From Candidatus Woesearchaeota archaeon (GTDB lineage Archaea > Nanobdellota > Nanobdellia > SCGC-AAA011-G17 > JAGVZY01), in NCBI GenBank assembly GCA_018302225.1, contig JAGVZY010000010.1, forward strand, positions 6,645 through 70,644: DNA of 64,000 nucleotides, written 5' to 3'. Both the position numbers and the translations under genes were made by a program. The notes beneath the pieces are model-generated. The model had not been told where the DNA came from. It searched no databases and was given only the letters and a program-made list of their open reading frames with translations. This document shows, one piece after another, positions 31,367-46,094 of this stretch (positions within the stretch are counted from its first letter, which is position 1; the number at the start of each line of letters is the position of its first letter).

Positions 31367-31440
31367 ACGTGTGCGAAGATTCCATTTTAATGGCTAAACA
31401 TTACCTTTACTGAAAAAAGATGCGACACGTTAGCTGTGTT
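31351..31440 (+). ncRNA. Hairpin element S, copy 1 (plus-strand orientation; outer stem degenerate)
   Basis: ttgccccacattttgaacgtgtgcgaagattc...aaaaaagatgcgacacgtt resembles the reverse complement of 37409-37504 and 39521-39615. The inner stem aacgtgt/acacgtt is perfect. RNA versus MITE is unresolved. Confidence 0.45.
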
Positions 31441-31502
31441 AAAAAAATAAGGGGAAGATAATTTGCAGAAAGATTTAAATAAACTCAAATGGACTACAAT
31501 TT

Positions 31503-32042: not shown

Positions 32043-32115
32043 TAAAAAACCGTTCCTCCGATGTCACGCATCCAATGGTCTTTCTGACGAACTAACCTAA
32101 AAAAAAGAAAACAAA

Positions 32116-32216
32116 TCACTTAGTAAATATCTTAACTATTACTTGTTCAACTTCTTTGATTTTAGATTCTTTAAGAGAACCAGATTTATAAAAAATAATG
32201 GACTTATCTGCTGTAA
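32116..32216 (-). pseudogene. 3'-terminal fragment of a mazF/pemK-like toxin gene
   Basis: The 101 bp match mazF 34071-34171 with about 4 mismatches. Homology continues into the downstream junction (32084-32115 vs 34040-34070). No 5' part is present. Confidence 0.8.
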
Positions 32217-32225
32217 CTAAACTAA

Positions 32226-32627
32226 TTAAATAACTCTTATTGCTTCTTCAGGCGTTAAAATCTTAATATTCTCATACTCTTTCAATTTCAAAAGATGTTT
32301 ATCCTGACTAATTATGAAATCAACTTGTCCATAGACTGCAGCCCAAATAAATTTATCATCTTCAGGATCTTCCTTAACTATATTGGCACATATAGGGACA
32401 TCAATCATGATTGAATTTTCTAAAATAAGATTCTTCCATTCCTCAATTAGCTCTTTGTCCATAGAAATCTTAAAAGTTTTAAGAGTTTTTACTAATTCTT
32501 CTATAATCTCTTCAGAACTAATTAATTGAAATTTTCCTTCTTTCCATTTATTTATAATTTGAGAACAAAAATTGCCTTCCCAAAATATTCCAGAAATAAA
32601 AACATTTGTGTCTAAAACGACTCTCAT
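32226..32627 (-). CDS. vapC: PIN-domain toxin (VapC-like)
   Basis: MRVVLDTNVFISGIFW... with the acidic residues of the PIN fold (D5, E..E, D near ISQDKHLL). 4-nt overlap with the upstream antitoxin. Confidence 0.85.
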   Translation of the reverse strand: MRVVLDTNVFISGIFWEGNFCSQIINKWKEGKFQLISSEEIIEELVKTLKTFKISMDKELIEEWKNLILENSIMIDVPICANIVKEDPEDDKFIWAAVYGQVDFIISQDKHLLKLKEYENIKILTPEEAIRVI

Positions 32628-32896
32628 TTTTTTCTAGCTTCTTTTATAGCTTCTGTTACATCTACTTGTTTTAAATTCTTAAGTTTTGCAAAATCTCTAG
32701 TTTTTTTAAGCAATTTATCTATTCCATTAAAATTAGGCATTTCTAATTTCTTTAAAACAATAGTATTATCTTCGCCAATAATAACAAACTTCTCTCCTTC
32801 ATGTATTCTAAGCTTATCTCTTAGACTTTGAGGTATAACTACTTGTCCTCTTGAACTCATACTTGTTATTTCTAAATTTTCCATTTTGACCTCCAA
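32624..32896 (-). CDS. vapB: AbrB/SpoVT-family antitoxin (VapB-like)
   Basis: SSRGQVVIPQSLRDKLRIHEGEKFVIIGEDNTIVLKKL swapped-hairpin motif. Confidence 0.8.
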   Translation of the reverse strand: MEVKMENLEITSMSSRGQVVIPQSLRDKLRIHEGEKFVIIGEDNTIVLKKLEMPNFNGIDKLLKKTRDFAKLKNLKQVDVTEAIKEARKK

Positions 32897-32929
32897 TAAA
32901 TTTATACTATCAGTAAGATTATCTTATTT

Positions 32930-32987
32930 ATAAAGCTTTCTGTAATTTTACTAACAGTCCCTCTCAAGTCATGTTTCCTATAGATAA
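32930..32987. repeat. Junction module R3 (contains the BRE/TATA of vapB), copy 1
   Basis: ataaagctttctgtaattttactaacagtccctctcaagtcatgtttcctatagataa resembles 36570-36628 and, more loosely, 39363-39400. Confidence 0.8.
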
Positions 32988-33073
32988 CCTGACGGGGCTA
33001 TCCGTGTTGACATGACAATCGAGTGTGATCTGAATGCTTAGAATTCTGATAGCCAAATTGCCCCATATTTTGA
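32988..33073. repeat. 86-bp direct repeat, copy 2 (tRNA-Gln 3'-end duplicate; attR-like)
   Basis: cctgacggggcta... matches 31281-31366 except at two positions. Confidence 0.9.
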
Positions 33074-33080
33074 GATAACA

Positions 33081-33947
33081 TTAATCTTCCAATCTTATCC
33101 ACTTTTTTTCTTCAATCTTCTTTATAAGTTTAGAATACAAAGATCTATCAATCTTTTTTATTTGTTCTTGAATTTCCTGTTCTAAAGGAATACCGTACGC
33201 CTTACTTCTATTTAAACTCCAATTATAAACGATTGCAGCCATAGCATCAGTTGTTCTATCCGTCAATTGAGGAAATAGTTTATAAAAATTGGTCCTAATT
33301 TCTAAAGAAGAATACTCGGGATGAGCAACGGCTATTGCTAACCAAAACTCACTTTGAGTATTAGTCATAACTTTTATAAAATCTTTCCAAATAGGATTTT
33401 TTTTGAGTAAGTCTGTTTGTTGTTGATAACCGCACCAATAAAGACTGCGATTAGAAACTATATCTCCAACTAACCAAGGTTCATCAATTAATTCCACATG
33501 ATTTTGCGAATAATCATATCTTAATCCATCTAAATAATTCAAACATTGTCTTAATCCTTCTTTTCTTACTTCTCTATCTAATGCAGGATAAACGAAACCT
33601 AAAACATTAAACACTGGAACAATAGTATCTTGATTTGGTCCACCAGCCATAGATTCTCCAAATGCCCTATTAGAAGAGATATCTCTTATTCTTTCTATAT
33701 AGGATCTTAAATTCTTAACCGCCCTTAAGGGATTTTCAAAAAGTAAAGTTTGAAACTCTTGGGCGATAGAATTAGCCTTAGAATATTGTTCTCCTAAAAT
33801 TGAAACCATTTCTGAAATAAACTTTTGATCAAAGCTAAAATTATCAATTACTCCATTCTTTTTAAGACTGATTGAAGGGATCCGTTTTACTTTTGGTTCA
33901 GAAAGCTTCTTTTCCAATTCTTCCTTAAAATTTATTAGTATAACCAT
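33081..33947 (-). CDS. Hypothetical protein (288 aa), cassette cargo
   Basis: Long ORF preceded by conserved promoter module B. No recognisable family or catalytic motif. Confidence 0.55.
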   Translation of the reverse strand: MVILINFKEELEKKLSEPKVKRIPSISLKKNGVIDNFSFDQKFISEMVSILGEQYSKANSIAQEFQTLLFENPLRAVKNLRSYIERIRDISSNRAFGESMAGGPNQDTIVPVFNVLGFVYPALDREVRKEGLRQCLNYLDGLRYDYSQNHVELIDEPWLVGDIVSNRSLYWCGYQQQTDLLKKNPIWKDFIKVMTNTQSEFWLAIAVAHPEYSSLEIRTNFYKLFPQLTDRTTDAMAAIVYNWSLNRSKAYGIPLEQEIQEQIKKIDRSLYSKLIKKIEEKKWIRLED

Positions 33948-33968
33948 TGTTTAAAAGAACTAATTAAG

Positions 33969-34054
33969 ACTTATAAAACTAATCTCAAAATCGTCTCATT
34001 CTTCTCTCCACAATATATAAACAGAACTCCGAGGTATCTCTGACAAACCAACCC
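33969..34054. repeat. Junction module B, copy 1 (TATA 'cttataaaactaatct' ... 'aactccgaggtatctctgacaaaccaaccc')
   Basis: Both ends recur at 38157-38218 and 40381-40458. The middle is variable. Confidence 0.8.
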
Positions 34055-34070
34055 AAAAAAAGAAAACAAA

Positions 34071-34403
34071 TTACTTAGTAAACATCTTAACTATTACTTG
34101 TTCAACTTCTTTTATTTTAGATTCTTTAAGAGAACCAGATTTATAAAGAATAATGGACTTATCTGCTGTAAATAACCTATTAGGTCTAATTGAACTAGTC
34201 AAAGGCAAACTTCCCTTTTTAAAATCTTTATTGTTTAGAATCAAAAAATATTTATCCACTCTAGCTTCGCTAGTTATTTGACAGAGAATGATATCATCCC
34301 CTTCTAATTCAGCAACTACTAAAGCAGGTCTCTTTTTTGAATTACTCAAATCTGAAAATGGAAAAGGTAATACTACTACATCCCCTTTTACAAATTCTTC
34401 CAT
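34071..34403 (-). CDS. mazF: MazF/PemK-family toxin
   Basis: GDVVVLPFPFSDLSNSKKRPALVV...CQITS is the PemK signature. Confidence 0.85.
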   Translation of the reverse strand: MEEFVKGDVVVLPFPFSDLSNSKKRPALVVAELEGDDIILCQITSEARVDKYFLILNNKDFKKGSLPLTSSIRPNRLFTADKSIILYKSGSLKESKIKEVEQVIVKMFTK

Positions 34404-34645
34404 GCTTTTTCATCCTCTTTGCTATTCCAATCTTTAGCTAAAACCATTTCGCTAAACTTAAGAATATCTCTAAAATCATCTTTCATAGATTGTTCAACTT
34501 TTTGTGATTTTTCTAATAAAATCTTATTATCTAATTGTATAACTATTAACTCATCTCCTTGTTCTATTCCTAGAGTTTCTCGCATAGTTTGAGGAAGAGC
34601 AATTTGTCCTTTTTCAGATACTTTAATTGTTTTCATCATATTCAA
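34388..34645 (-). CDS. mazE: AbrB/MazE-family antitoxin
   Basis: VSEKGQIALPQTMRETLGIEQGDELIVIQLDNKILLEK. Overlaps the mazF start. Confidence 0.8.
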   Translation of the reverse strand: MNMMKTIKVSEKGQIALPQTMRETLGIEQGDELIVIQLDNKILLEKSQKVEQSMKDDFRDILKFSEMVLAKDWNSKEDEKAWKNL

Positions 34646-34665
34646 ATGTAAGAATATTCTTACTT

Positions 34666-34750
34666 ATAAAGCTTTCTATTTTTTAGATTATATTTCGATG
34701 GTCTCTCCTACATCACACAACAGGCTCACCCCCTGACAAACCACCCTAAA
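34666..34750. repeat. Junction module A, copy 1
   Basis: ataaagctttctattttttagattatatttcgatggtctctcctacatcacacaacaggctcaccccctgacaaaccaccc resembles 35912-35998. The partial copy is at 41433-41476. Confidence 0.85.
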
Positions 34751-34758
34751 AAACAGGT

Positions 34759-35280
34759 TTAATATGTATCTATAATCTCTTTAACCTTATTCACGAAGTT
34801 TATTGCTTTTCTCTGTAACCCCTCTGCTTCTTTTATATCAAAAAAGATTTTAGTTGAATAATTTGCCTCTTTTCTCTTTGCTTTATTCTTAATATAATCT
34901 AAAACTTCTTCCTTTTCTATAGCCACCTTACTAACTATTGCTATATCTTCTCTATCTAGTTTAATTTTGTAAAAATCTTTAATTAATATTAATAAAGTAG
35001 CTAAATGATTTTTTGTTGAATAGCCTTTTAACGCACACAATGCTAAAGACGCCTGATAAATAGAATAATAAGAAACAACAATTGCCCAATCATTAAATTC
35101 CTTTAATCCTAGAGTGGCTTGAAGAAACTTAAGATTATGATCTGCTTTTTCTATGTGACCTTTAACTAAAGCAGGAGTTTCAGTTTCTTTAGTTATTTTC
35201 TTGGATTTAAGATACTGATTGAAATCTCTATTTCTTCTTTCTTCACTTTCCAGCCATAGTTCCCAAAGCTCTTTAGTCAT
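34759..35280 (-). CDS. HEPN-domain protein (toxin partner of MNT)
   Basis: All-helical 173 aa with KGYSTKNH (Rx4-6H-like position). Overlaps the upstream nucleotidyltransferase gene. Confidence 0.7.
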   Translation of the reverse strand: MTKELWELWLESEERRNRDFNQYLKSKKITKETETPALVKGHIEKADHNLKFLQATLGLKEFNDWAIVVSYYSIYQASLALCALKGYSTKNHLATLLILIKDFYKIKLDREDIAIVSKVAIEKEEVLDYIKNKAKRKEANYSTKIFFDIKEAEGLQRKAINFVNKVKEIIDTY

Positions 35281-35878
35281 TTAATACCTCTTTGTAAAAC
35301 TGATCATTTCCCGATAATGGAAATCCTGTCTTTATTGCGTGAGTTATAACTTTATCTTCTTCTCTTAATATCTGTTCTTTAAAATAGTCAAAATTAATTA
35401 TAAAAGTTTGTATTTTAACTCCTGTTATTGCTTCTATATCTTTTTTAAGTTTTTGATCTTCAGATTCTTTTTTATTATAAACTAAAAGCAAGTCTATATC
35501 ACTTTCTTTTGAAAAAGTTCCTTTTGCAGTCGAACCGAAAAGGAGGGTGATTAAAGGTTTAATCTTAAGTTTATCTAATAAGTCGGTTATTGCCCTTCTT
35601 CTATCTAAAGGAAGTTCATTAAACTTTTTATAATCAAAATAAGCTAGAATAGCATAAAGTTGTTTATTTTTAGGATTTAACTTATAGAAAGTATTTCCTA
35701 TCTTTTTAGTACAAATTATAAGGTTGTTTGTTTGAAGATTCTTCAGATGTTTAAGAGTAGTATTCTGAGTTAGTTTTGTTTCTCTTAAAATCTCACTAAA
35801 ATAAAGCTCTTTAGTATAATTTCTATAAAAACAGGCTAATATCTTTTCTTTTCCGTTTCCGAATAATGTATTGTTCAT
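35273..35878 (-). CDS. Minimal nucleotidyltransferase (MNT) with N-terminal wHTH
   Basis: LLFGSTAKGTFSKESDIDLLLV (GSx10-ishDxD). N-terminal HTH-like segment about 90 aa. Confidence 0.8.
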   Translation of the reverse strand: MNNTLFGNGKEKILACFYRNYTKELYFSEILRETKLTQNTTLKHLKNLQTNNLIICTKKIGNTFYKLNPKNKQLYAILAYFDYKKFNELPLDRRRAITDLLDKLKIKPLITLLFGSTAKGTFSKESDIDLLLVYNKKESEDQKLKKDIEAITGVKIQTFIINFDYFKEQILREEDKVITHAIKTGFPLSGNDQFYKEVLND

Positions 35879-35911
35879 TTTATGTATAGCTTAGTACATT
35901 TAATGTACTAT

Positions 35912-35998
35912 ATAAATCTTTCTATTTTTTAGAGTATATTTCGATGGTCCCTCCTACATCACATCATAGGCTCACCCCCTGACGAACCAACCCAAAAA
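35912..35998. repeat. Junction module A, copy 2
   Basis: ataaatctttctattttttagagtatatttcgatggtccctcctacatcacatcataggctcaccccctgacgaaccaaccc. Confidence 0.85.
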
Positions 35999-36040
35999 AA
36001 CACTTATTAGCCTTACCCTAATTAAATCGAGGACAAAAAT

Positions 36041-36307
36041 TTAATCCCTATAAATTAAATCGTGATGATCGTAATCTTCAAAAAAAATTGTCTGATTTTG
36101 ATGATCTACTTTAAAAACTAAAACAAAATGTCCTATGTGGACTCTATTCAAGCTTTTCATATCATAAGTTAAAAATTTATAACTATGATTAGGATTTTCT
36201 AAAATAGAATCAATCTTTTTTCTAACTTGAAAATAATGCGTATTATCTTTCTTTTTGAGCTTAGCTAACTTTTTTACAATCTCTTCACTATAGCAATCTT
36301 TGTACAT
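36041..36307 (-). CDS. relE: RelE/ParE-superfamily toxin
   Basis: 88 aa: KKLAKLKKKD...KKIDSILENPNHSYKFLTYDMKSLNRVHIGHFVLVFKVDH, the archaeal RelE pattern. Confidence 0.7.
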   Translation of the reverse strand: MYKDCYSEEIVKKLAKLKKKDNTHYFQVRKKIDSILENPNHSYKFLTYDMKSLNRVHIGHFVLVFKVDHQNQTIFFEDYDHHDLIYRD

Positions 36308-36534
36308 TAAGATACCTCTTTTTCTAATTCCTCACGAGAAAAATGCTTTCCTTTTATAATTTTAGCTAATTTGATTTTATATTCAGGCCTTAATTCAGGT
36401 TCTAAAGAAAGTTGTTCATATTCAGTTACGACTATGTTTATTGCCTGAGACTTATCTCTTAAACCAAATTTTGCTTTTACTATGTTTAACACCCTGTTAG
36501 TATTTTCGTCTATATTTATCACAGCTTGTACCAT
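36307..36534 (-). CDS. Antitoxin (DUF2683-like)
   Basis: MVQAVINIDENTNRVLNIVKAKFGLRDKSQAINIVV. Its stop abuts the relE start. Confidence 0.6.
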   Translation of the reverse strand: MVQAVINIDENTNRVLNIVKAKFGLRDKSQAINIVVTEYEQLSLEPELRPEYKIKLAKIIKGKHFSREELEKEVS

Positions 36535-36569
36535 ATTACATCACGTATATAAGTATATATGTCTTATAT

Positions 36570-36702
36570 ATAAATCTTTCTGTAATTTTTGCCACAGTCC
36601 CTCTCAAGTCATGTTTCCCATAGATAACCTGACAGGGCTATAAACACTCGCGTGACATTCTAGGGACCATTTGTCCACAGCCCCTTAAATTCTAAATGTG
36701 AA
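36570..36702. repeat. Composite junction R3 + tRNA-3'-like core + R2, copy A (interrupted at 36702 by the IS)
   Basis: Resembles 39363-39474. The core cctgacagggcta is a degenerate tRNA-Gln 3' end. Confidence 0.85.
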
Positions 36703-37381
36703 CTACTCAGCACTAAAGTGCTGAGCGTCATTAGTTAAATTGAGCTAATCTTAATTGTTCTTTTCCATATTTATAATACTGATAATCAACTGCTTTCCAA
36801 TGTTTCTTTTGGCTATGTTCAACATAGAATCTTACGGAATCTTTTGTAACTGCATCAACAGTTCTATAAAAATATCCCGCACTCCAGAATTTTTTACCCC
36901 ATAACTTATTTTTAAGTAAATCTTTATGATATTTTCTTATCATATAAGATGAGAAACCTTTTAGCTCTCTGACTATTTTTTCTATACTATGCTTCTTCCA
37001 ATTACTAATAAAAATATGTCCATGGTCTGGTCCAAAGTCTATAGCAGGAATTACAAGACCAAGCTTTTCTGATTTTTCAAGGAGATATTTCTTTGTTAAT
37101 TCAAAAACCTTCTTATTCGCAAATACGTCTCTCCTGTATGCAGGAGTAATCTGCAAGTGTAGATTACTTTCTCCTACAGTTGAGCCCGTTTTAACTAATT
37201 CGTTTTTCATTTTTTTCTCCCGACGCAAAGTTTTTATAGAAAGACAGCTTACACTAATTGGTTTCTTTCAAGTAGCGTAGCGTCAACGCTACGTTACATT
37301 TTAGTATGTTTTAGAAGAAATACTTTACGCAATTCATCTCAGACCTAAAGGTATGAGTGTTCTTGTGCTAAAAGGTATAAA
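36703..37381 (-). mobile_element. IS200/IS605-family insertion sequence (tnpA only), about 679 bp
   Basis: Boundaries inferred from the uninterrupted paralogous site 39461-39485 (aaatatgaa|agccgaaat). No target duplication. Subterminal hairpins ctcagcac-taaa-gtgctgag (36706-36725) and tagcgtagcg-tcaa-cgctacgtta (37285-37308). Confidence 0.8.
36731..37228 (-). CDS. tnpA: IS200/IS605 Y1 (HUH) transposase TnpA
   Basis: HUH motif DHGHIFI and catalytic-Tyr region WSAGYFYRTVDAVT. The start may be ATG 37210. Confidence 0.9.
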   Translation of the reverse strand: MRREKKMKNELVKTGSTVGESNLHLQITPAYRRDVFANKKVFELTKKYLLEKSEKLGLVIPAIDFGPDHGHIFISNWKKHSIEKIVRELKGFSSYMIRKYHKDLLKNKLWGKKFWSAGYFYRTVDAVTKDSVRFYVEHSQKKHWKAVDYQYYKYGKEQLRLAQFN

Positions 37382-37504
37382 AGCCGAAATAAAAAATACC
37401 TCAAAAAGTTCCGCCACAAGGCCAACGTGTCGCATCTTTTTTTAGTGCAAGTAAATTATTACCTAAATTTTAGAATCTACGCACACATTAAAAACGTGGC
37501 GGAA
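37382..37504 (-). ncRNA. Linker plus hairpin element S, copy 2 (S = 37409-37504)
   Basis: On the minus strand: ttccgccac...gtggcggaa is a perfect 9-bp outer stem, and the inner stem aatgtgt/acacgtt has one G-U. About 50 nt downstream of the 193-aa ORF stop. Confidence 0.5.
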
Positions 37505-37554
37505 TAAATTTTAAGATAAAAGAAGAATTTATTGAATCTAGATCTTCAAGAAAA

Positions 37555-38136
37555 TTAATAGTCCTGCCACAACCAAGGTCTCTCTTTTCTTACCTCCATA
37601 AATAATTCAAAGCTAAGTTTGTCTTTCTTATCAGGAAGATAATTAGGAAATTTATTTACATCAAAATTCGGTTTATTAATCAAAAAGGTAAAAAATTCTG
37701 TTAAGTCTTCATCAACTAAAACATTTAACCCCCGTTCATAAGATCTTTTGGCTAATTTTTCAACACAATCCCACATATGAAATCCAGCGATTCTAATTAC
37801 TTTAACTATACCTAATTGATTAATTATATAATCTTGATTAGGATAGGAATAAGTTCCATCAGATTTTTTTGTAGTATGAGTTTTAAAATCCATCCCTACG
37901 TTTAGAATCTTATCCGATTCATGAAGTTCAATCATATCTGAAAGGGTAGTATCATTAAAAAGGGCATAATTTATATTAAAACCTTTTTGCCTATATCTCA
38001 AATCTATACATTGGTTTAAAAGAAGTTTATATTTTTGTTTAAACAAATCAGGTTCTTTTACATTCATCCAGCGCTTACACCCCAATTCAAAGTTTATTAT
38101 CTCTGGAATAGGATATAAAAATACAAACTCTTGCAT
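37555..38136 (-). CDS. Hypothetical protein (193 aa), weakly isochorismatase/cysteine-hydrolase-like
   Basis: IRIAGFHMWDCVEKLAKRSYERGLNVLVDEDL resembles the G...CV...A...G..V.V..D core. Other catalytic residues were not identified. Confidence 0.4.
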   Translation of the reverse strand: MQEFVFLYPIPEIINFELGCKRWMNVKEPDLFKQKYKLLLNQCIDLRYRQKGFNINYALFNDTTLSDMIELHESDKILNVGMDFKTHTTKKSDGTYSYPNQDYIINQLGIVKVIRIAGFHMWDCVEKLAKRSYERGLNVLVDEDLTEFFTFLINKPNFDVNKFPNYLPDKKDKLSFELFMEVRKERPWLWQDY

Positions 38137-38156
38137 ATCTAATTATTAATATTTAA

Positions 38157-38218
38157 ACTTATAAAACTAATCTAGATATATAAATAACACTCCAAGGTAT
38201 CTCTGACCAACTAAAACC
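38157..38218. repeat. Junction module B, copy 2
   Basis: acttataaaactaatct...acactccaaggtatctctgaccaactaaaacc. Confidence 0.8.
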
Positions 38219-38265
38219 GAAAGATATATAAATAACCAATATCTTGGTTTATATAACCCAATAAA

Positions 38266-38895
38266 GTGGTTAATATGATAACTCAAAAACAATTCAAAAT
38301 ATTTGGGATATTCGCAAGTAAACCTTTTGTAGAACATACCCGAAACGAAATAAAAAAAGAACTAAAAGAAAAGTCTAATAATGCTCTAGCTTTAACTATC
38401 AACCTATTAAAAAAAGAAGAAGTCCTAATTGAAAAAAAAGTTGGAAAATCTGGTCTTCTAACCCTTAATTTAAACAAAGATTTAACCTTTTCTTATCTCG
38501 AATTATGGAGTTTATCCAAACTTCCCCATTTAGCTAAACTTTCTCTGGAAACCTTAAAAAAAGAAATTACTGAAAACACCCCATTTTATTCCTTAGTTAT
38601 CTTTGGTTCTTATGCTATAAATCAACAAAAGGATAACTCGGATTTAGATATTGCAATTTTTATTGAAAAGGAAAACAATAAAAAGCAAATAGAAGCTTTA
38701 GTGAATAGTGCAAAATTAAAAAGTACAATTGAAATAGATGCACATATTATCCCAAAATCAGAGATGATTGAAATGCTTACAAATAAAGAAGAAAACTTAG
38801 GAAAACAAATAGCACGAAAACATTTAGCTTATTATAATAATAGGATATTTTATGAAATAATCAAAGAAGGGAGGGATCATGGATTTAGGATATAA
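38266..38895 (+). CDS. Minimal nucleotidyltransferase (MNT) with N-terminal wHTH
   Basis: VIFGSYAINQQKDNSDLDIAIFI. The start may be ATG 38275. Confidence 0.8.
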   Translation: MVNMITQKQFKIFGIFASKPFVEHTRNEIKKELKEKSNNALALTINLLKKEEVLIEKKVGKSGLLTLNLNKDLTFSYLELWSLSKLPHLAKLSLETLKKEITENTPFYSLVIFGSYAINQQKDNSDLDIAIFIEKENNKKQIEALVNSAKLKSTIEIDAHIIPKSEMIEMLTNKEENLGKQIARKHLAYYNNRIFYEIIKEGRDHGFRI

Positions 38896-39352
38896 AATTT
38901 ATCTTGCACGAGCTCAGAACGAATTAAACCTTTCAATGATAGTTCAAAAAATAAGTGATAATAAGAAACTACAAATTGAAGTGTTTGAAATGAAAGAAGA
39001 TACTTATTATAGCGCAGCTATTTCTCATGCTTACTATTCAATATTTTATGCTGCAAAAGCTTATCTTTTATTAAAGAATATAAAGACTCTGGCGCCTGAA
39101 GAACATAGAAAAACCTTTGAAGAATTCTCAAAGCTCGTAAACAAAGGTATAATTGATGTAGAATTACTCAGAATCTATCAAAGTATGCTTATCAAAGCAG
39201 ATACGCTTCTAAATATATTTGAACTAGAAAAAGGAAAAAGAGGAAAGTTCACTTATAGAAGAATACCTCAAGCAAATCAAGAACCTGCGCAAGAAAGTAT
39301 AAAAAATGCACAAATATTTTTTAAGAATATATTTAGATTATGTGAGAAATAA
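38879..39352 (+). CDS. HEPN-domain protein
   Basis: All-helical, AISHAYYSIFYAAKAYLL...APEEHRKT. Overlaps the MNT stop. Confidence 0.7.
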   Translation: MDLGYKIYLARAQNELNLSMIVQKISDNKKLQIEVFEMKEDTYYSAAISHAYYSIFYAAKAYLLLKNIKTLAPEEHRKTFEEFSKLVNKGIIDVELLRIYQSMLIKADTLLNIFELEKGKRGKFTYRRIPQANQEPAQESIKNAQIFFKNIFRLCEK

Positions 39353-39362
39353 TAGCCTTATT

Positions 39363-39474
39363 TTGCCACAGTCTCCCAAGTCATATTTCTTCTAAATAAG
39401 CTGACGGGACTATAAACACTCGCGTGACATTCGAGGAACCATTTCCTCACAACTCCTTAAATTCTAAATATGAA
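39363..39474. repeat. Composite junction R3' + tRNA-3'-like core + R2, copy B (uninterrupted)
   Basis: gccacagtctcccaagtcatatttcttctaaataagctgacgggactataaacactcgcgtgacattcgagg...ttaaattctaaatatgaa. Confidence 0.85.
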
Positions 39475-39615
39475 AGCCGAAATAAAAAAATACCTCAAAA
39501 AGTGGATTTTGAGCTGAGAATTCCGCCACAAGGCCAACGTGTCGCATCTTTTTTTAGTGCAAGTAAATTATTACCTAAATTTTAGAATCTACGCACACAT
39601 TCAAAACGTGGCAGG
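39475..39615 (-). ncRNA. Linker plus hairpin element S, copy 3 (S = 39521-39615)
   Basis: Near-identical to copy 2. The single outer-stem change gives U-G on the minus strand and C-A on the plus strand. Confidence 0.5.
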
Positions 39616-39667
39616 AGAAAGTTGAAAATAAAAGAGAAATTAAATGTAGATATTAAGCTTATAAATT

Positions 39668-40360
39668 TTATTTAGTTAATTTAATTTCTGCAAGTTGTCT
39701 ATTAAGAATTACATAAAGAGGAATATAACCATTTCCAAAGTTTTCATGAATATAACCTAAAACCTTCATTTGTGGCAACTTCTCTCTTGCCGAGATTTTA
39801 TTAATCTCATCTTCTATTAATGGATCATTGTTCTTAATTCTTTGAGACAGTTCTTCAAAGCTCAATTTGCTTCCAGTTCTATAAAAATCTATTTCTTCTA
39901 AAGATCTATCTATCCTACTTAATCTTTGAGTATATAATTGAACTTGCTTTTCAGATTTTAATGCCCCAACAGGATAATCTCCTTTTTGTAATAAACTTCT
40001 CGGCGTTCCTTTCCATTCAGATCCTAAGGTAACAATACCATAAGAAGAACTTAAAATTTTAGCTATATTATAATTAATATATCTCGAATTTAAATTAATT
40101 TTATCTAACTTAGACCAAATCGCAATAATTTCTAAAGATTCAAAGTTAAAATCATTAATTCTTTCCACTTCGTCCGCAAAATCCCCTAAGTTAGCACAAA
40201 TATAATCCTGAGCTTCAGAATTATTCTTTTCCTTTAAATTTTTAGCAATATCAATTATCTTTATTTGATAGTTATTCAAAAGAGTTATAACTGGATGTTC
40301 TTCAAAGCCTCTTAAATTCAAGGCATTATTCACTTCTGAATCTGTAAGGGGTAAGTTCAT
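39668..40360 (-). CDS. Hypothetical protein (230 aa), cassette cargo
   Basis: Long ORF behind promoter module B. No family recognised. Confidence 0.55.
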   Translation of the reverse strand: MNLPLTDSEVNNALNLRGFEEHPVITLLNNYQIKIIDIAKNLKEKNNSEAQDYICANLGDFADEVERINDFNFESLEIIAIWSKLDKINLNSRYINYNIAKILSSSYGIVTLGSEWKGTPRSLLQKGDYPVGALKSEKQVQLYTQRLSRIDRSLEEIDFYRTGSKLSFEELSQRIKNNDPLIEDEINKISAREKLPQMKVLGYIHENFGNGYIPLYVILNRQLAEIKLTK

Positions 40361-40380
40361 AATTTAAAAAATGATTCAAG

Positions 40381-40458
40381 CTTTATAAAACTAATCTAAA
40401 AACCCTATCCGTGAGATTTGAATAGAACTCCGAGGTATCTCTAACAACCAACCCAACC
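40381..40458. repeat. Junction module B, copy 3 (core CTAAC)
   Basis: ctttataaaactaatct...agaactccgaggtatctctaacaaccaacccaacc. Confidence 0.8.
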
Positions 40459-40520
40459 GAAACCTTTAAATATCTACACATACATACACGTATTAACACA
40501 TAATACACAAGGCGATAAAT

Positions 40521-40745
40521 ATGGTAAATGTAACATTAGCTATTCCCGTAGAATTAAAACAAAAGATGGATTTATTCAATGAAATTAATTGGAGTGCTGT
40601 TGCAAGGCAAGCATTTGACGAAAAAATAAACGATTTAGAATTCATCAAAAAGTTTAAAGCAAAAAGTATAGTTACAGAAAGAGATACTTTAGAATGGGGT
40701 AAAAAGTTAAATAAAAGTTTGGCAAAAAGAAGGTACTCCGTCTAA
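40521..40745 (+). CDS. Antitoxin-like small protein (RHH/VapB-like)
   Basis: MVNVTLAIPVELKQKMD...NWSAVARQAFDEKI. Stops 1 nt before the PIN gene. Confidence 0.6.
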   Translation: MVNVTLAIPVELKQKMDLFNEINWSAVARQAFDEKINDLEFIKKFKAKSIVTERDTLEWGKKLNKSLAKRRYSV

Positions 40746-40746
40746 A

Positions 40747-41136
40747 ATGGACTTAATCGTAGATGCTAATATTCTTTTTTCTATTTTAATTAAACAAGGA
40801 AAGACCGAAGAACTTATTTTTAAAAATGAATTTCATCTTTTTACTCCAGAATATATTTTTGAAGAATTTGAAAAACATAAATCAGAAATTATAGAAAAAA
40901 CACAAAGAAATTCTGAAGATTTTAATAATTTGACGAATATATTGAAAAAGAGAATAAATACTATTAGTAATGAAGAAACTGAAAGATTTATTATGGCCGC
41001 TAAAAAAATAAGCCCAGATCCAGATGATATTGATTATTTTGCCTTGGCATTGAAAATTAAATGCCCCATTTGGAGTCAAGATAAAAAGCTTAAATTGCAA
41101 AAAAAGATTATAAAATATACTCTACAGAAGAAATAG
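40747..41136 (+). CDS. PIN-domain protein (VapC-like toxin)
   Basis: MDLIVDANILFSILIK...TPEYIFEEF...DPDDIDYFALAL...SQDKKL. Confidence 0.75.
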   Translation: MDLIVDANILFSILIKQGKTEELIFKNEFHLFTPEYIFEEFEKHKSEIIEKTQRNSEDFNNLTNILKKRINTISNEETERFIMAAKKISPDPDDIDYFALALKIKCPIWSQDKKLKLQKKIIKYTLQKK

Positions 41137-41170
41137 TGAAGTTATTTGAATAAAAAAAGAAGTAAATAAT

Positions 41171-41383
41171 ATGATTCAAAATAAAAGAAAATTAAAAAAG
41201 ACCTTATGGGTATTTACCTTATTTTATTTAATAGGATTAATAATTGGTTTGGGTCTAATCTTTTCAATGTCCAACGCCCCAACTACCAAAAATATAATTT
41301 TTATTTTAGTTCTAGACTTTGTTATTATGGGCACAATTACCTATCTCTACATTTGGAAAGAGCTCCCAACAATTGGAATTTAG
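41171..41383 (+). CDS. Small two-TM membrane protein (70 aa)
   Basis: Hydrophobic spans LWVFTLFYLIGLIIGLGLIF and IIFILVLDFVIMGTITYLYIW. Confidence 0.45.
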   Translation: MIQNKRKLKKTLWVFTLFYLIGLIIGLGLIFSMSNAPTTKNIIFILVLDFVIMGTITYLYIWKELPTIGI

Positions 41384-41432
41384 TTAATTCAGATATCGAA
41401 AAAAACCTTCCCTCGAATGTCACGCATCCGGG

Positions 41433-41476
41433 GGTCTCTCCTACATCACACAACAGGCTCACTGTCTGACGAAACG
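41433..41476. repeat. Junction module A, partial copy 3 (right end of the cassette region)
   Basis: ggtctctcctacatcacacaacaggctcactgtctgacgaaacg. It is preceded by tcgaatgtcacgcatcc, a motif also at 32058-32074 and, inverted, in both R2 copies. Confidence 0.75.
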
Positions 41477-41496
41477 AATTTTATAAAAAGAAAAAA

Positions 41497-41658
41497 TTAA
41501 ATCTGTCCAGTTTCAGTATATTTTTTAATCAATCTTTCAACTACCACAGCAGGAGCAAATCCTTTCTGTGCGCATACTTTAACAAAACCATTATAAATTG
41601 CTCTATCTACATTATAATCCAATTGCATTTTTTTCTGTGCTTTAAGACTTGCCGCCAT
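41497..41658 (-). CDS. Unlisted small ORF (53 aa), ribbon-helix-helix-like
   Basis: My own translation: MAASLKAQKKMQLDYNVDRAIYNGFVKVCAQKGFAPAVVVERLIKKYTETGQI. Below the ORF-track length cutoff. The beta-strand/helix/helix pattern is typical of CopG/RHH. Confidence 0.45.
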   Translation of the reverse strand: MAASLKAQKKMQLDYNVDRAIYNGFVKVCAQKGFAPAVVVERLIKKYTETGQI

Positions 41659-41836
41659 ATTTTACCACCAAAAATTAAATTATTAATCAAGTTTATAAGT
41701 ATTAGCTTTTAAACTATCGAACCAGCTTCTTTAATAATAGTAGTTTTCCAACAGCAGAAACTCTTCTAATGAAAACTATTTTAATCATAAATTATTAAAA
41801 GATAAGTTTATTAAAAACCTTTTCTTTTGAATTGAA

Positions 41837-42109
41837 ATGACTAAAACAACTTGGTATATTTACATTCTAGAATGTCTTGATGGTTCTTATTACACTGGTG
41901 TCACAAACAACCTAGAAAAAAGAATGAAAACCCATCAATCTGGAAAAGGAAGTAAATATGTAAAAAGAAAAGGATTTAACCATTTAATCACCTCCTCCAA
42001 ATGCAAAGACAAATCAGATGCATGCAAAAAAGAATATTTAATTAAACAACTTCCAAAACATGAAAAATTAAAATTTTTAAAAAATCTAAGTCTTAATCCC
42101 ATTATTTGA
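41837..42109 (+). CDS. GIY-YIG nuclease superfamily protein
   Basis: WYIYILECLDGSYYTGVTNNLEKRMKTHQSGKGSKY. Confidence 0.85.
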   Translation: MTKTTWYIYILECLDGSYYTGVTNNLEKRMKTHQSGKGSKYVKRKGFNHLITSSKCKDKSDACKKEYLIKQLPKHEKLKFLKNLSLNPII

Positions 42110-43291
42110 TTTGTTATTATAATCTATAAATATCCAGTTTAATATTCCTAAACTAGTTATAGCTAATAAAGCCAAAACAAAAGCCATTTCGAAAACATTT
42201 GCGGCAAAATACAAAACAGTCAAAGTAACCGCATGTGCAAACATATAACCAAAATTCCTATAAGTTGAAGTATCTAAAAGAGATTTTTGATGTCTATCTT
42301 TAACTAACCTAGCATCCAAAGGCACCATAATAAATAATACACCTAATTCAGCAAAGACTAGTGTCACATACAAAAAGATTCTTGTCAATTCTGAAATATT
42401 TTGTATTCTTAATAACCAAATTATTGCAATCCAAAATGCACCTAAAATAATAAATTTAGATTTGCCCCATTTATCGGCTAACTTACCTATAACAATAGTC
42501 GTAGACATAGCTACAATCGCAATTATTGTAGGCATTATACCTACACTTTCAAAACTTAAAAAAGTTATAAAAACAAATATAGGAATAATCGTATATTCAA
42601 CAGTATAATCTATACCTAAAAAGAAAATTGTCAACAAATTTATTCTATTTTTAGTTTGTTTTAAAAAATCAAAAACCCCATCAACCACCTTAGGCTTCAA
42701 ATGATCCATTTTTATTCTAGATAAAGGAATTAAAGAAGTCAATAACATTAAACTACTTAAAATAACTAAATATTGTTTATTTAAAAATATTAAAAAACCA
42801 GCACCCACTAAAGGAGCAACTAAACCTCCTGTCTGCCTTACAACCATTAAAAATCCAACTTGTTTTCCGACTCCAGCCCTTGGATGAACACATTCATTAA
42901 ATACAAACCAGTGTGCAACCCAATAAAATGAATCTGCTATAGCTAGACAAATTGCCAATGCAACCAACAAGGGCCAGTCATAGTTAGTGGGATATAATAA
43001 CAAAAAACTTCCTATATGCGCAATAATTGCGATAATAATTGTTTTCTTTGCACCATACCAAATAACAAATTTTCTTGCTAAAAAATTAAGTGCAACATCA
43101 GTTGCATTAAAAATAATCAGAAACAAAATGACTTGCTTTAATGGAAATCCCGCACTTAATAATAAAATCGGAATAAATATGCTTACTAAACTTACTCCAA
43201 TAGTATACAACCAGATAGAAAACTCTAATTTAGACAAATCTGACTTAAAATATTTATAGAAATTTGCATAATAATGTTTTAGTACTCTCAT
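42086..43291 (-). CDS. MFS-type transporter
   Basis: 401 aa, about 12 hydrophobic segments in 6+6 organisation. Family assignment by architecture only. Confidence 0.6.
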   Translation of the reverse strand: MRVLKHYYANFYKYFKSDLSKLEFSIWLYTIGVSLVSIFIPILLLSAGFPLKQVILFLIIFNATDVALNFLARKFVIWYGAKKTIIIAIIAHIGSFLLLYPTNYDWPLLVALAICLAIADSFYWVAHWFVFNECVHPRAGVGKQVGFLMVVRQTGGLVAPLVGAGFLIFLNKQYLVILSSLMLLTSLIPLSRIKMDHLKPKVVDGVFDFLKQTKNRINLLTIFFLGIDYTVEYTIIPIFVFITFLSFESVGIMPTIIAIVAMSTTIVIGKLADKWGKSKFIILGAFWIAIIWLLRIQNISELTRIFLYVTLVFAELGVLFIMVPLDARLVKDRHQKSLLDTSTYRNFGYMFAHAVTLTVLYFAANVFEMAFVLALLAITSLGILNWIFIDYNNKSNNGIKT

Positions 43292-43381
43292 TTCAACCTC
43301 TTTTAATTAAATTAAAGATACAGTCTTTAAAAACATTTTTATTTATAAACCTTTATATATCTCTCTTAATTTAAACTAAAT

Positions 43382-44437
43382 ATGCAAAAAACTAAATATT
43401 ACTCCTGGAAAAAAGGGAATTTAGCCAAAGGCTGTCAATTATGCATAAAAGGTCAAAAAATGGTTTTGTTCATAACAGGCTTATGCCACAAACATTGTTA
43501 TTTTTGTCCAATCTCAGAAAAGAAATTTAACAAAGATGTTTTTTACATCAATGAGCTTAAAACTAATAATCTAAAAAAAATCTTAGAAGAAACAAAAAAA
43601 GGAAATTCTTTAGGTTGTGGTATTACTGGTGGGGATCCTTTAATGAAAATTAAAAGAACGACAAAATTAATAAAATTCTTAAAAAAAACATTCAAAAATA
43701 AATTCCATATTCATTTATACACACCTTTAGAATTAGTAAATGAAAGCAATTTAAAACAACTAAATCAAGTGGGCTTAGATGAAATTAGATTTCATCCATC
43801 TCTAGATTCAAATAGATTATGGAATAAAATTTCCTTAGCAAATAAATTCAAATGGGGTATAGGTGTAGAAATTCCTCTTTTACCAAATAAAGAAAAAGAA
43901 ATCAAACAATTATGTGATTTTATAGATGATAAAGTCGATTTTCTAAATTTAAATGAACTTGAAGTTTCAGATACAAATTCTGATGCTTTGATTAAAATGG
44001 GCTTTAAAATAAAATCAAAAGATTCATTTGCAGTAAAAGGAAGTGAAAAATTGGGATTAAAAATTTTAAAGTATTGTAAAAATAAACATTATAATATCCA
44101 TCTATGTACTGCAAAATTAAAAGATAAAATTCAATTCACAAATAGAATAATCAAATACGCTCAAAGCACTGCAAAACCTTATGATTTAATAACAAAAGAA
44201 GGTATGCTTAAACATGGTGCAATTTACACTAAAAACCCTAAAACAACCTATAATCTACTTATTAAAAAATTTAAAGTACCTAAAAAACTTCTAGAAATGG
44301 ATAATAAAAACAAAAGAATATTAACTGGAGATTGGATTGTTTTAGAATTAAAAGATAAACTAAAACAATATAAACTTGCAATTATAGAACAATATCCAAC
44401 AGCAGAAAAAACAGAAATAGAGGTTACATACCTATGA
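43382..44437 (+). CDS. Radical SAM domain protein (COG2108-like)
   Basis: GLCHKHCYFCPIS (CxxxCxxC) after an N-terminal CQLC motif. GITGGDPL. Confidence 0.75.
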   Translation: MQKTKYYSWKKGNLAKGCQLCIKGQKMVLFITGLCHKHCYFCPISEKKFNKDVFYINELKTNNLKKILEETKKGNSLGCGITGGDPLMKIKRTTKLIKFLKKTFKNKFHIHLYTPLELVNESNLKQLNQVGLDEIRFHPSLDSNRLWNKISLANKFKWGIGVEIPLLPNKEKEIKQLCDFIDDKVDFLNLNELEVSDTNSDALIKMGFKIKSKDSFAVKGSEKLGLKILKYCKNKHYNIHLCTAKLKDKIQFTNRIIKYAQSTAKPYDLITKEGMLKHGAIYTKNPKTTYNLLIKKFKVPKKLLEMDNKNKRILTGDWIVLELKDKLKQYKLAIIEQYPTAEKTEIEVTYL

Positions 44438-45126
44438 CAGTACAATATGACCAACATTTTATGATTAACAAAGAAGTTTTAAAATATATTGGAAACCTAA
44501 CTAAAAAGAAAGATAAAGTTTTAGAAATTGGTGCAGGACATGGAGAACTTACTCAATTCTTAAATGGAAAAATTACTTCTTTAGAAATAGATCAAGATTT
44601 ATTCAAACTTTTAAAAGCTAAGATTAAAAATGTTAATTTTATTAATACAAATGCACTAAAATATAATTTAAATAATTTTGATATAATCCTAGGAAATCTT
44701 CCTTATTACATTTGCGAATCTTTATTTAACAAACTAATTAAGACTAAATTTAAACAAGGAATTTTTATGATTCCAAGAAATTTTATAGAAAAAGGTGTTC
44801 TAAATTATGTAATCAAAGATTTCTTTAATATAGAAATTCTAAAAGAAATTAACAAAGAGGACTTTTTACCCCTTCCAAAAACAGAAAGTGTTTTGATCAA
44901 AATAACTCCAAAAGAACCAACTGCATTTGGTTTAATATACCTACAAAATACTAAAAAGTTAAAAAATGCAATTGAATATGCACTAACTAAAAAAGGATAT
45001 ACTCAAAAACAAGCAAAAGAAAAAATGCCTAATTTAAAATTCTTAAATAAAAAGTGTTTTGAACTTAACTTTGAAGAATGGTTACAAGTAATCGGTTTTT
45101 CTAGAACAATTATCTTACAAAAATAA
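44434..45126 (+). CDS. ksgA: rRNA small-subunit adenine dimethyltransferase (KsgA/Dim1), short form
   Basis: QHFMINKEVL, VLEIGAGHGELT, ILGNLPYYI. Confidence 0.8.
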   Translation: MTVQYDQHFMINKEVLKYIGNLTKKKDKVLEIGAGHGELTQFLNGKITSLEIDQDLFKLLKAKIKNVNFINTNALKYNLNNFDIILGNLPYYICESLFNKLIKTKFKQGIFMIPRNFIEKGVLNYVIKDFFNIEILKEINKEDFLPLPKTESVLIKITPKEPTAFGLIYLQNTKKLKNAIEYALTKKGYTQKQAKEKMPNLKFLNKKCFELNFEEWLQVIGFSRTIILQK

Positions 45127-45912: not shown

Positions 45913-45944
45913 AATTCAATTAAAACAAACTTATTTAATAACTA

Positions 45945-46016: not shown

Positions 46017-46094
46017 ACAATATCTCTAAAAAAAGCTATATTTATTTAACTTTCCAACCAAAACTTTAAAAATCTGTCTTTATAAGTTATAATT

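Follow-up and report, generated by a model that had tools for sequence, protein, structure and literature searches.

The locus analysed here raises the question of what a hairpin-forming element of about 95 nt, called S in the following, is and does, given that it lies in three copies and two orientations behind a tRNA gene and two ORFs. A preliminary description of the same DNA had left the choice between a structured 3'-UTR or small RNA and a MITE-like element with 9-bp terminal inverted repeats. We show that S is the conserved, quasi-palindromic outer part of an attP-derived attachment module of ~300 bp, that the owners of this module are small integrative elements inserting at the 3' end of tRNA-Gln in DPANN-type archaea, and that the three copies, together with the stump of a fourth, are the footprints of four successive insertions at tRNA-Gln. 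The function of S within the module is a more tentative matter: our preferred reading is of a hairpin at the edge of the integration module, a boundary mark that probably stops transcription from both sides (probability roughly 0.45). The window denotes the whole stretch of DNA that was analysed (64 kb). A covariance model for S was run on the window and on the fetched loci, and the metagenome contigs of the site were searched as well, with the coverage of the genome itself being the 64-kb window. The comparisons below involve a related genome (L056), a complete integrated element with its flanking host DNA (L007), and loci of the same species (L066, L068 and L070). The features of the window that are needed are, in order of position:

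31220-31293, plus strand: tRNA-Gln(CTG), the 3' end of which (31279-31294) is the attachment core holding the island insertion; the site is empty in L056.
31294-45943, no strand: island of 14.6 kb between the convergent tRNA-Gln and tRNA-Gly(CCC) genes, with toxin-antitoxin and other cargo.
31295-31350, plus strand: arm leading from the core to S copy 1, 56 nt, including GTTGACATGACA.
31351-31456, plus strand: S copy 1, type 1, sense on the plus strand; outer stem split by an 11-nt A-rich bulge.
32908-32985, plus strand: left-arm repeat immediately before core copy 2, with the promoter-like box AGAAAGCTTTATAAATA on the minus strand; second occurrence at 36548-36625.
32986-33001, plus strand: core copy 2, AACCTGACGGGGCTAT, 1 mismatch.
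33002-33073, plus strand: arm (98% identical to 31295-31350) and 16-nt stump of S (33058-33073); the same junction lies directly after the tRNA in L066.
36626-36641, plus strand: core copy 3, 2 mismatches.
36642-36697, plus strand: arm of segment 3, part one, resuming at 37378-37408 past the IS insertion.
36698-37377, minus strand: insertion of the IS200/IS605 family with its own end hairpins; tnpA at 36731-37228 (Pfam Y1_Tnp, 1e-25); boundaries good to 1-2 nt.
37378-37408, plus strand: arm of segment 3, part two, A-rich on the plus strand and thereby giving U-tracts after S on the minus strand.
37409-37504, minus strand: S copy 2, type 2; core inverted relative to its flanks.
37505-37527, plus strand: right-flank box TAAATTTTAAGATAAAAGAAGAA, whose direction on the tRNA-sense strand is kept in L007 and L068 despite the flipped S core.
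39398-39413, plus strand: core copy 4, 3 mismatches.
39414-39520, plus strand: arm of segment 4; an 18-nt insert (39503-39520) makes a small extra hairpin.
39521-39615, minus strand: S copy 3, type 2.
45944-46017, minus strand: tRNA-Gly(CCC), far border of the island.

Copies 2 and 3 had been described as near-identical, and this was borne out by the alignment of the extended repeats 37409-37534 and 39521-39646 (91% identity), within which the S parts differ at 3 positions. The resemblance of copy 1, first delimited as 31351-31440, to the reverse complement of the other two was likewise recovered: 31350-31439 matches the reverse complement of copies 2 and 3 at 72-74%, types 1 and 2 of S are only 72-75% alike, and the 19-mer AAAAAAGATGCGACACGTT is found in three exact occurrences in the window (0.03 expected). 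The end of copy 1 was moved out to 31456. Same-sense alignments of S scored at z = 20-54, compared with z of at most 2 against the reverse complement, which leaves no doubt about orientation, and S is much better conserved than the arms, which reach z = 0.7-3.1 only. The 19-nt block is invariant in five of the six S variants. In copies 2 and 3 the core of S is inverted, while the direction of the 21-nt flank is unchanged; the unit common to these two copies is ~300 nt long and thus larger than S, and in copy 2 it is broken by the IS200-like insertion.

The distances between S and its upstream neighbours, previously estimated at about 50 nt after the stop codons of the 193-aa and 230-aa ORFs (copies 2 and 3) and about 60 nt after tRNA-Gln (copy 1), were measured as 50, 52 and 57 nt. 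They are one aspect of a more general layout, in which a left arm with the promoter-like box is followed by a copy of the tRNA-Gln 3' end, an arm of 56-107 nt, S, a short flank box and then variable cargo. The tRNA-Gln 3' end occurs in four direct copies (starting at 31279, 32986, 36626 and 39398; 0.1 expected by chance), each of which leads through its arm to S, in the order full, stump, full, full. The spacing from core to S is 56, 56, 87 and 107 nt in the window and 83 nt in L007. Mismatches in the core climb with distance from the tRNA (0, 1, 2, 3), a gradient that fits successive integrations. The segments are small (1.7-3.6 kb), and no integrase was found in the island or elsewhere in the window.

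The relatives place these repeats in the context of integration. In L056 the site is empty, with tRNA-Gln and tRNA-Gly 10 nt apart. L007 carries a complete integrated element of 6.4 kb, with the tRNA-Gln(TTG) 3' end directly repeated at its two borders (attL and attR). The element encodes a tyrosine integrase and a DGR, and has S 83 nt inside attL; S is absent from the L007 host DNA past attR. In L007 as in the window, inserted DNA is bounded by direct repeats of the tRNA 3' end. Together, the empty site in L056 and the S-free host DNA after attR led us to reject a host-encoded tRNA trailer element. Within the species, segment 1 is missing in L066, L068 shares the arm and the 5' part of S but carries different cargo, and L070 has a mosaic S. 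In every case seen, S lies at the border between the constant module and variable cargo, and in other elements the same S stands in front of unrelated cargo. Contigs were also checked for a circular junction of segment 1, and the assemblies break at the repeats.

The arrangement is that of tRNA-gene accretion as described for IME- and CIME-type elements, the attP arms of tyrosine integrases and islands at tRNA 3' ends: each segment lies between direct repeats of the tRNA 3' end, with the oldest repeats the most decayed; adjacent segments lack an integrase, one segment varies in its presence between strains, the core is embedded in a conserved non-coding module of a few hundred bp, and the cargo is rich in toxin-antitoxin pairs. 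It differs from such islands in the occurrence of the S core in both orientations, in the very small segments and in the DPANN hosts. We know of no tRNA attachment site for which a long, nested palindrome of ~100 nt has been described as the outer arm.

The conserved, nested hairpin-forming palindrome in S is real. Folded as minus-strand RNA, copies 2 and 3 reach -35 kcal/mol (z = -5.2) and -30.1 kcal/mol (z = -3.9), respectively, by way of the stems named in the preliminary description, TTCCGCCAC/GTGGCGGAA (outer) and AAYGTGT/ACACGTT (inner). Copy 1 keeps the outer stem, which is split by the bulge, with GGGG at 31451-31454 pairing with CCCC. Four stems are nested one inside the other up to the apex, all of them are rebuilt in six distinct sequences, and 84.9% of cells are paired, compared with 24-53% in a control in which the partners were slid. 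Across variants one pair appears as G.U, A-U or G-C and another as U-A, U.G or C-G, and the outer stem has a pair that reads C-G in type 1 but G-C in type 2; changes on both sides were found for one pair in the MAFFT alignment and for two or three pairs in a manual alignment. Compensatory changes, to which the preliminary description had looked for a decision, did not exceed the control: over the six distinct sequences the covariation score was 0.133, compared with 0.120 for shuffles, and 166 of 500 shuffles reached it.

It had further been proposed that substitutions in the stems stay pairable on one strand only. The two G-U changes on which this was based are present, but an additional T-to-C in the outer stem of copy 3, which gives C.A on the 'sense' strand, had been overlooked. 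The asymmetry itself holds for copies 2 and 3 and for L007, and is restricted to them; copy 1 and two population variants, that is, the type-1 sequences, fold about equally on both strands (approximately -20 to -22 kcal/mol) and are no more stable than shuffles (z about -1 to -1.8). In its DNA form the hairpin is weak (-8 to -15 kcal/mol). On the minus strand a U-tract lies 3' of the hairpin in copies 2 and 3, where S is followed by CUUUUUGAGGUAUUUUUUAUUU, with UUUGCAAUUUUUUGAU in L007; copy 1 is followed by runs of U3-U4 only, and AAUUUUAAG is found on the opposite side of S. A simple terminator scan did not flag S, the loop being too long. In Rfam searches only tRNAs passed the gathering threshold, and nothing credible was found on S even at E <= 10.

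For the two-way stop, the mechanism we envisage is as follows. S would form a long hairpin of four stacked stems in whichever strand is transcribed; on the tRNA-sense strand it would be flanked by an A-rich tract at one end and a T-rich tract at the other. It may thereby serve as a two-way transcription stop or insulator between the tRNA with its attachment site and the cargo, blocking cargo transcription from running antisense into the tRNA as well as tRNA read-through into the cargo. Being palindromic, S would be functional in either orientation, and with such orientation independence the inversion of the core in copies 2 and 3 would be tolerated. The near-equal folding of the two type-1 strands, the tracts CUUUUUGAGGUAUUUUUUAUUU, UUUGCAAUUUUUUGAU and AAUUUUAAG beside S, and the regular position of S on the border of constant module and variable cargo are consistent with this reading. 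Bidirectional intrinsic terminators resemble S in placing a hairpin, framed by an A-tract and a T-tract, between convergent or tandem units, but they consist of a short G+C-rich stem, whereas S is ~95 nt long and has internal loops. Archaeal termination is known to depend on oligo-T and not on hairpins, and to our knowledge hairpin-dependent termination has not been established in archaea. Against a stop it also counts that the T-tracts sit in the flanks, with T3-T4 runs only in copy 1, that type-1 hairpins are no more stable than shuffles and covariation stays at the level of the shuffle control, that the 19-nt block is more sequence conservation than a terminator needs, and that S is missing from 18 loci with related integrases. 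The block suggests that S is recognised by a protein or by a nucleic-acid partner.

A role in recombination at the DNA level is nearly as likely, if still on the improbable side. S would then be a cis part of attP, made of inverted binding sites or a cruciform for the arm-binding domain of the integrase or for an accessory or directionality protein, and integration or excision would putatively require it. Each element has a single S, which stands at +57 to +107 bp and never on the other side of the core, a distance covered by the arms of lambda-type attP sites; of the non-coding sequence common to elements with unrelated cargo, S is the best conserved, and it contains the near-invariant 19-mer, tolerates either orientation, sits where conserved module and variable cargo meet, and is itself mosaic in strains. 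The L007 integrase moreover has an N-terminal region of ~175 aa ahead of its catalytic domain. However, the varying distance from core to S would be awkward for a fixed intasome geometry, four nested stems up to an apex look more like a folded single strand than like half-sites for a protein, the pairs in copies 2 and 3 and L007 favour G.U over A.C on one strand, the DNA hairpin is weak, and the window is without an integrase.

Considerably less probable is a selfish palindrome of the MITE, REP or ERIC kind, which would have inserted into the att arm on one or two occasions, in either orientation, and would now be carried along by the elements without serving them. Copies 2 and 3 have terminal inverted repeats of 9-10 bp (interrupted or imperfect in copy 1, L068 and L007), both orientations occur between the same flanks, as independent insertions into one target would give, and the conservation of S as a unit differs sharply from that of its surroundings. 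Like ERIC/IRU, REP/BIME and Correia elements, S is an imperfect palindrome of ~100 nt that is intergenic, probably transcribed and found in either orientation; for those families, a role in RNA termination or stability has been put forward. They are dispersed in tens to hundreds of copies, some with TA duplications, unlike S, which occurs only in att modules, once per element, and without duplications. The flanks, read directly at every copy including L007, contain no target-site duplications and are instead homologous between copies, so that S was inherited as part of a larger module and not by an insertion of its own; accordingly, copies 2 and 3 are duplicated within the 300-nt module and not alone. 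An empty target was not found, nor was an autonomous partner with S-like ends, the sole nearby transposase being that of the IS200-like element, which ends differently.

All matches of the covariance model fall in att modules, namely those of the window, L007 and the strain variants, and no copy was found outside att modules in the 64 kb, the 70 loci and the metagenome contigs of the site. Simpler searches agree: an 18-mer of S retrieved one true relative from metagenome contigs (L007), the two-part S pattern had 0 matches in genome contigs, a 19-mer in genome contigs and a 15-mer in viral contigs gave chance matches only, blastn against phages and plasmids found nothing, and no new kinds of S turned up in loci with related integrases, in loci of homologues of the DegT-like neighbour or in the contigs of the 193-aa protein. 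The idea of a plain MITE was therefore dropped, there being no target-site duplications and no copies outside att modules in the window and in the metagenomes holding this genome. By its absence from the 18 loci encoding related integrases, S is not a general part of the sites of that integrase family.

The IS200/IS605 insertion, whose Y1 transposase lies 180 nt from S, was considered as the source of S, either as one of its ends or as a PATE. This was rejected, as the copy 3 region represents the empty site of the insertion and places S 31 nt outside it; judged by this empty site, the IS200-like element is an insertion separate from S.

As improbable as the selfish palindrome is a reading that would make tRNA-Gln the docking site for an integron-like capture of cassettes on a lambda-type integrase in DPANN archaea, with integrase-less cassettes of 1.7-3.6 kb, mostly of toxin-antitoxin or defence type, each carrying a composite site of a tRNA 3'-end mimic and S, and with S as the recognised or recombining structure. 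The observation that the breakpoints of cargo exchange, mosaicism, truncation and inversion all lie in or at S would thereby be accounted for.

We give little credence to an invertible DNA switch, in which a tyrosine recombinase would flip the 77-bp core between its 9-10-bp inverted repeats and thus change expression at the junction. The core is indeed inverted while its flanks hold their direction, inverted repeats bound the flipped part, and the L007 element encodes a tyrosine recombinase, features shared with invertons such as fimS, Hin-type systems and the promoter switches of Bacteroides, which likewise have short inverted repeats and both orientations between fixed flanks. Yet orientation tracks sequence type, which fits a single old event; all assemblies have one orientation per locus and no opposite-strand joints at S within a locus, although contigs hide minority forms; and S contains no internal promoter, with no match to the island promoter box AGAAAGNTTTAWAWATA. 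The segment is much shorter than in invertons, 77 bp being very short for recombinational synapsis, and the nested inner stems would be left unexplained.

About as doubtful is the reading of S as a gene for a small regulatory RNA carried by the mobile elements, the active part being its better-conserved 3' half. Copy 1 and L007 agree at every position of the 3' half (41 nt) and differ at 10 of 40 positions in the 5' half, and G.U pairs favour one strand in three copies, but the variants L068 and L070 alter the 3' half, no convincing archaeal promoter box lies upstream of or inside S in all copies, the window holds no complementary target, and Rfam gave no match. Metatranscriptome contigs of the same studies yielded nothing from the island. 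The structured 3'-UTR or small RNA of the preliminary description was too narrow where it was tied to the tails of the 193-aa and 230-aa genes, the module beginning at the copy of the tRNA-Gln 3' end and the same S preceding unrelated cargo in other elements; S may still have a role at the RNA level. A retron or DGR RNA, suggested by the reverse transcriptase in L007, was rejected: this enzyme belongs to a DGR, whose TR/VR pair is clear and lies at a distance of 2 kb, and no reverse transcriptase was found in the window.

Integrons and CALINs are known in archaea (PMC9668308), and CALINs have been reported for Nanoarchaeota. That S is an integron attC and the island a CALIN (an attC cluster without an integrase) is nonetheless very improbable and was rejected on a crude consensus scan of the window, in which a pair of R''/R' (RYYYAAC...GTTRRRY) with an L box gave 0 sites: S resembles attC as a strand-asymmetrically folding (in some copies), imperfect palindrome of similar length (96 nt) at a cassette border, ~50 nt past two ORFs on their strand, in an array rich in toxin-antitoxin cassettes, but it has GTTRGCY, its AAY/GTT pair sits at the outer edge of the inner stem beside an internal loop and not in a paired R box, it is present in only 3 of ~10 cassettes with one inverted, the crossover repeats that bound the segments are the tRNA 3'-end copies outside S, and no IntI was found.

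Mobile elements of DPANN archaea are, as far as we know, almost unstudied, and the present locus, a tRNA-anchored island of a groundwater archaeon, is still in flux within a natural population, with strains differing in their cargo and in the possession of one segment. The combination of tRNA-Gln core, arm and S forms a recognisable non-coding signature, which could be used to find and delimit elements, including those without an integrase that are missed by gene-based tools. Should S turn out to be required in recombination, or to shield the tRNA gene as an insulator, archaeal integrative elements would have a cis element of a new type; a palindrome that merely hitch-hikes would still be useful as a marker, though as nothing else.

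Homologues of the 193-aa protein reach an identity of at most 63% and are ordinary DPANN/CPR genes. The outer arm of copy 1, TTGCCCCAC, resembles the reverse complement of the core, TAGCCCCG; as the other copies do not share this resemblance, it was taken as chance.

A family of elements that integrate at tRNA-Gln carries an attachment module whose conserved, palindromic outer part is the hairpin repeat S, and the S copies in the window mark four successive insertions. The window comes from the chromosome of an AT-rich archaeon; it encodes Topo VI and RFC, contains an intron-type tRNA match, has its nearest protein relatives (at most 61% identity) among sequences labelled Nanoarchaeota, Woesearchaeota or Aenigmatarchaeota, and is present in groundwater metagenomes. 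The main features are:

31220-31293, tRNA-Gln
31351-31456, plus strand, S copy 1 (type 1)
33058-33073, 16-nt stump of a fourth S copy
36698-37377, complete IS200/IS605-family element of about 680 bp, with a 165-aa Y1 transposase on the minus strand
37409-37504, minus strand, S copy 2 (type 2)
39521-39615, minus strand, S copy 3 (type 2)
45944-46017, tRNA-Gly(CCC), convergent with tRNA-Gln

In a relative (L056) with the gene order kept and a DegT-like neighbour gene 58% identical, 10 nt separate tRNA-Gln(CTG) from a convergent tRNA-Gly(CCC). As the two tRNA genes lie far apart in the window, the 14.6 kb between them (31294-45943) are an insertion. Toxin-antitoxin and other small cassettes follow one another from tRNA-Gln onward (PIN/AbrB, MazF/AbrB, two HEPN/nucleotidyltransferase pairs and a ParE-like pair), with repeated intergenic modules standing between them; the island's cargo includes six or more toxin-antitoxin pairs along with a radical-SAM protein, a GIY-YIG protein and a membrane protein of 401 aa. 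No integrase gene was found in the window. Direct repeats of the final 16 nt of tRNA-Gln stand at 32986, 36626 and 39398 (1, 2 and 3 mismatches, respectively; 0.1 expected), and behind each of the four cores, i.e. the tRNA-Gln 3' end and its copies, come an arm of 56-107 nt and S. Such graded repeats are what repeated site-specific integration at a tRNA leaves behind, the segment closest to the gene being the youngest.

The three full copies of S lay where the preliminary description had placed them, and its distances to stop codons and to tRNA-Gln, its named stems and its two G-U substitutions were correct. The end of copy 1 had to be moved to 31456, and the count of three omitted the stump. 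In copy 3, the G-U substitution is accompanied by a second outer-stem change, which gives C.A on the 'sense' strand (plus for copy 1, minus for copies 2 and 3); in copy 1, the outer stem is kept, but split by an 11-nt A-rich bulge. Stretches 37409-37534 and 39521-39646 were 91% identical, with 3 differing positions inside S, and 31350-31439 matched the reverse complement of copies 2 and 3 at 72-74%. The 19-mer AAAAAAGATGCGACACGTT, common to the S copies, occurs exactly three times in 64 kb (0.03 expected), and orientation is unambiguous, since local alignments give z of 20-54 in the same sense and no more than 2 when one partner is reverse-complemented. No Rfam family matches S, which is without the features of an attC site, and neither target-site duplications at S nor dispersed copies were found in the window, related loci and metagenome contigs. 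Nor does S belong to a particular cargo gene: the proteins of 193 and 230 aa are not related, and the remaining copies stand before different genes.

Copy 2 and the Y1 (IS200-like) transposase gene are 180 nt apart. Relative to copy 3, the roughly 680 bp of its element are inserted at TTCTAAAT^ATGAAAGCC in the arm of segment 3 (counting insertions outward from tRNA-Gln), without duplication, and the empty site is preserved at 39467-39470. S lies outside this element, whose ends form hairpins of their own (GTAGCGTTGACGCTAC and CTCAGCACTTTAGTGCTGAG), and is not part of it. With the IS removed, copies 2 and 3 each belong to the same module of about 300 nt, which runs from a left arm with promoter-like box through core, arm and S to some 30 nt beyond. 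A small hairpin in the arm (36643-36690 and 39415-39460) shows paired substitutions between copies 2 and 3, GGAC...GTCC versus GAGGAA...TTCCTC.

A true relative of S was carried by one metagenome contig from a second genome, L007 (29% G+C), 83 nt after tRNA-Gln(TTG) and in the tRNA's direction. The tRNA 3' end is repeated 6.4 kb further on, and between the repeats lie S, two unknown genes, a diversity-generating retroelement (DGR), a tyrosine integrase and a nucleotidyltransferase/HEPN-like pair. As host DNA of L007 beyond the second repeat contains no S, S is element-borne, just inside attL. L007 and the window island have no protein in common; their likeness lies in S, the core, a flank box and an arm of weak similarity. 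The DGR (7901-10118) has its template repeat at 9070-9117 and its variable repeat at 9435-9482, at the 3' end of a 261-aa gene; the two differ at template adenines, and a 355-aa RT adjoins.

Contigs encoding an identical DegT-like protein served as the set of strains of the window organism, and among them the tRNA-Gln junction has several alleles, being polymorphic in the population. L066 (1080-1297) is without segment 1, tRNA-Gln being directly followed by arm, 16-nt stump and a 288-aa gene. L068 (95-240) keeps this arm and S up to nt 70, then continues with a different S 3' part (a hybrid S), a copy-2-kind flank box and other cargo, while L070 (1-123) has a mosaic S with L007-like patches; several contigs or assemblies break in S or just beyond. 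In these alleles, constant sequence gives way to variable sequence at S rather than at the core.

Read along the tRNA-sense strand, L007 has S(sense)-GGAATGAATTTTAAGATAAAA and copy 2 has S(antisense)-GGAATAAATTTTAAGATAAAA. The flank after S is identical at 20 of 21 positions in the same direction, the 15-mer AATTTTAAGATAAAA is present a single time each in the window and L007, both times at the S flank, and L007-type contigs match the copy 2 S core on one strand and its flank on the other. The flank identity and the opposite-strand matches indicate that the S core was flipped between outer inverted repeats with the flanks unmoved, copies 2 and 3 being inverted relative to copy 1, L007 and L068. 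Breakpoints of truncation, mosaicism and inversion all fall in S. Orientation tracks sequence type, with one orientation across all assemblies of a given locus, and a single old inversion is enough for this pattern. The copy 3 arm contains an 18-nt insert (39503-39520, TGGATTTTGAGCTGAGAA), an inverted near-copy of the adjacent CTCAAAA that makes a small extra hairpin and looks like a template-switch mutation; a process of this kind might also account for the flipped S core.

Already known are toxin-antitoxin islands, intergenic palindromes and the build-up of integrative elements in tandem at tRNA genes. New are S as an undescribed element family, compared here over two lineages and six variants, its constant position within the att module that DPANN elements carry, and the flipping of its core between conserved flanks.

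Four stacked stems were rebuilt in the six distinct S sequences, and 84.9% of cells in their MAFFT alignment were paired, versus 24-53% with slid partners. One pair varies compatibly as G.U, A-U and G-C, another as U-A, U.G and C-G, and an outer-stem pair is G-C or C-G between sequences; with six distinct sequences the covariation score was not above shuffles (reached by 166 of 500). As RNA, copy 2 folds at -35 kcal/mol on the minus strand (z = -5.2) and -24.7 on the plus strand, and copy 3 at -30.1 kcal/mol (z = -3.9) and -18.6. S had been described as pairable only on one strand, which holds for copies 2, 3 and L007 and not family-wide: type-1 copies of the window species fold equally well on both strands (-20.3 vs -21.2, -21.9 vs -19.6, -21.6 vs -21.3), with z of about -1 to -1.8. 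By hand count, the 'sense' strand has more G.U pairs than A.C mismatches, at a ratio of about 9 to 3 that does not reach significance. Single-stranded DNA folds are weak in all copies (-8 to -15 kcal/mol).

As for function, we favour the inference that S would act as an RNA hairpin stopping transcription on either strand, a reading that fits its position, indifference to orientation, nested symmetry and RNA folding energies much better than those of DNA. The hairpin would form in transcripts from either strand and, with the flanking A-rich and T-rich tracts, would stop transcription where the tRNA/att site meets the cargo. Three points count against it: to our knowledge, archaea have no established hairpin-dependent termination, the stability of type-1 hairpins is not out of the ordinary, and the nearly invariant 19-mer suggests specific recognition. 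Almost as likely is a role in recombination at the DNA level, as an arm-type or accessory site, which would better explain the rearrangements clustered at S. At lower odds, S may be a hitch-hiking palindrome, an invertible switch or a small RNA gene.

Two further families of cassette-junction repeats, which may be decayed or alternative recombination sites, were also observed, one at 34004-34053, 38167-38216 and 40405-40454, the other at 34665-34753, 35911-35999 and 41433-41473. Both end in CTCTGACAAACCAACC or CCCCTGACAAACCACCC, with CCTGAC as in the tRNA-Gln core and a different remainder, and each copy lies directly upstream of a promoter-like box. GTGACAT-type motifs in inverted orientation flank the cores on both sides, also in L007, and are candidate core-binding sites of the integrase. 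Directly after the segment 1 PIN gene, 32100-32224 is a 125-nt copy (95% identical) of 34055-34179, the 3' end of a MazF-like gene with downstream DNA, suggesting that cassettes were swapped at gene 3' ends. The intron-type tRNA match (12127-12250, minus strand) is a 124-nt full-length Rfam tRNA match without an ARAGORN call, directly beside tRNA-Cys, and is probably an intron-containing tRNA.
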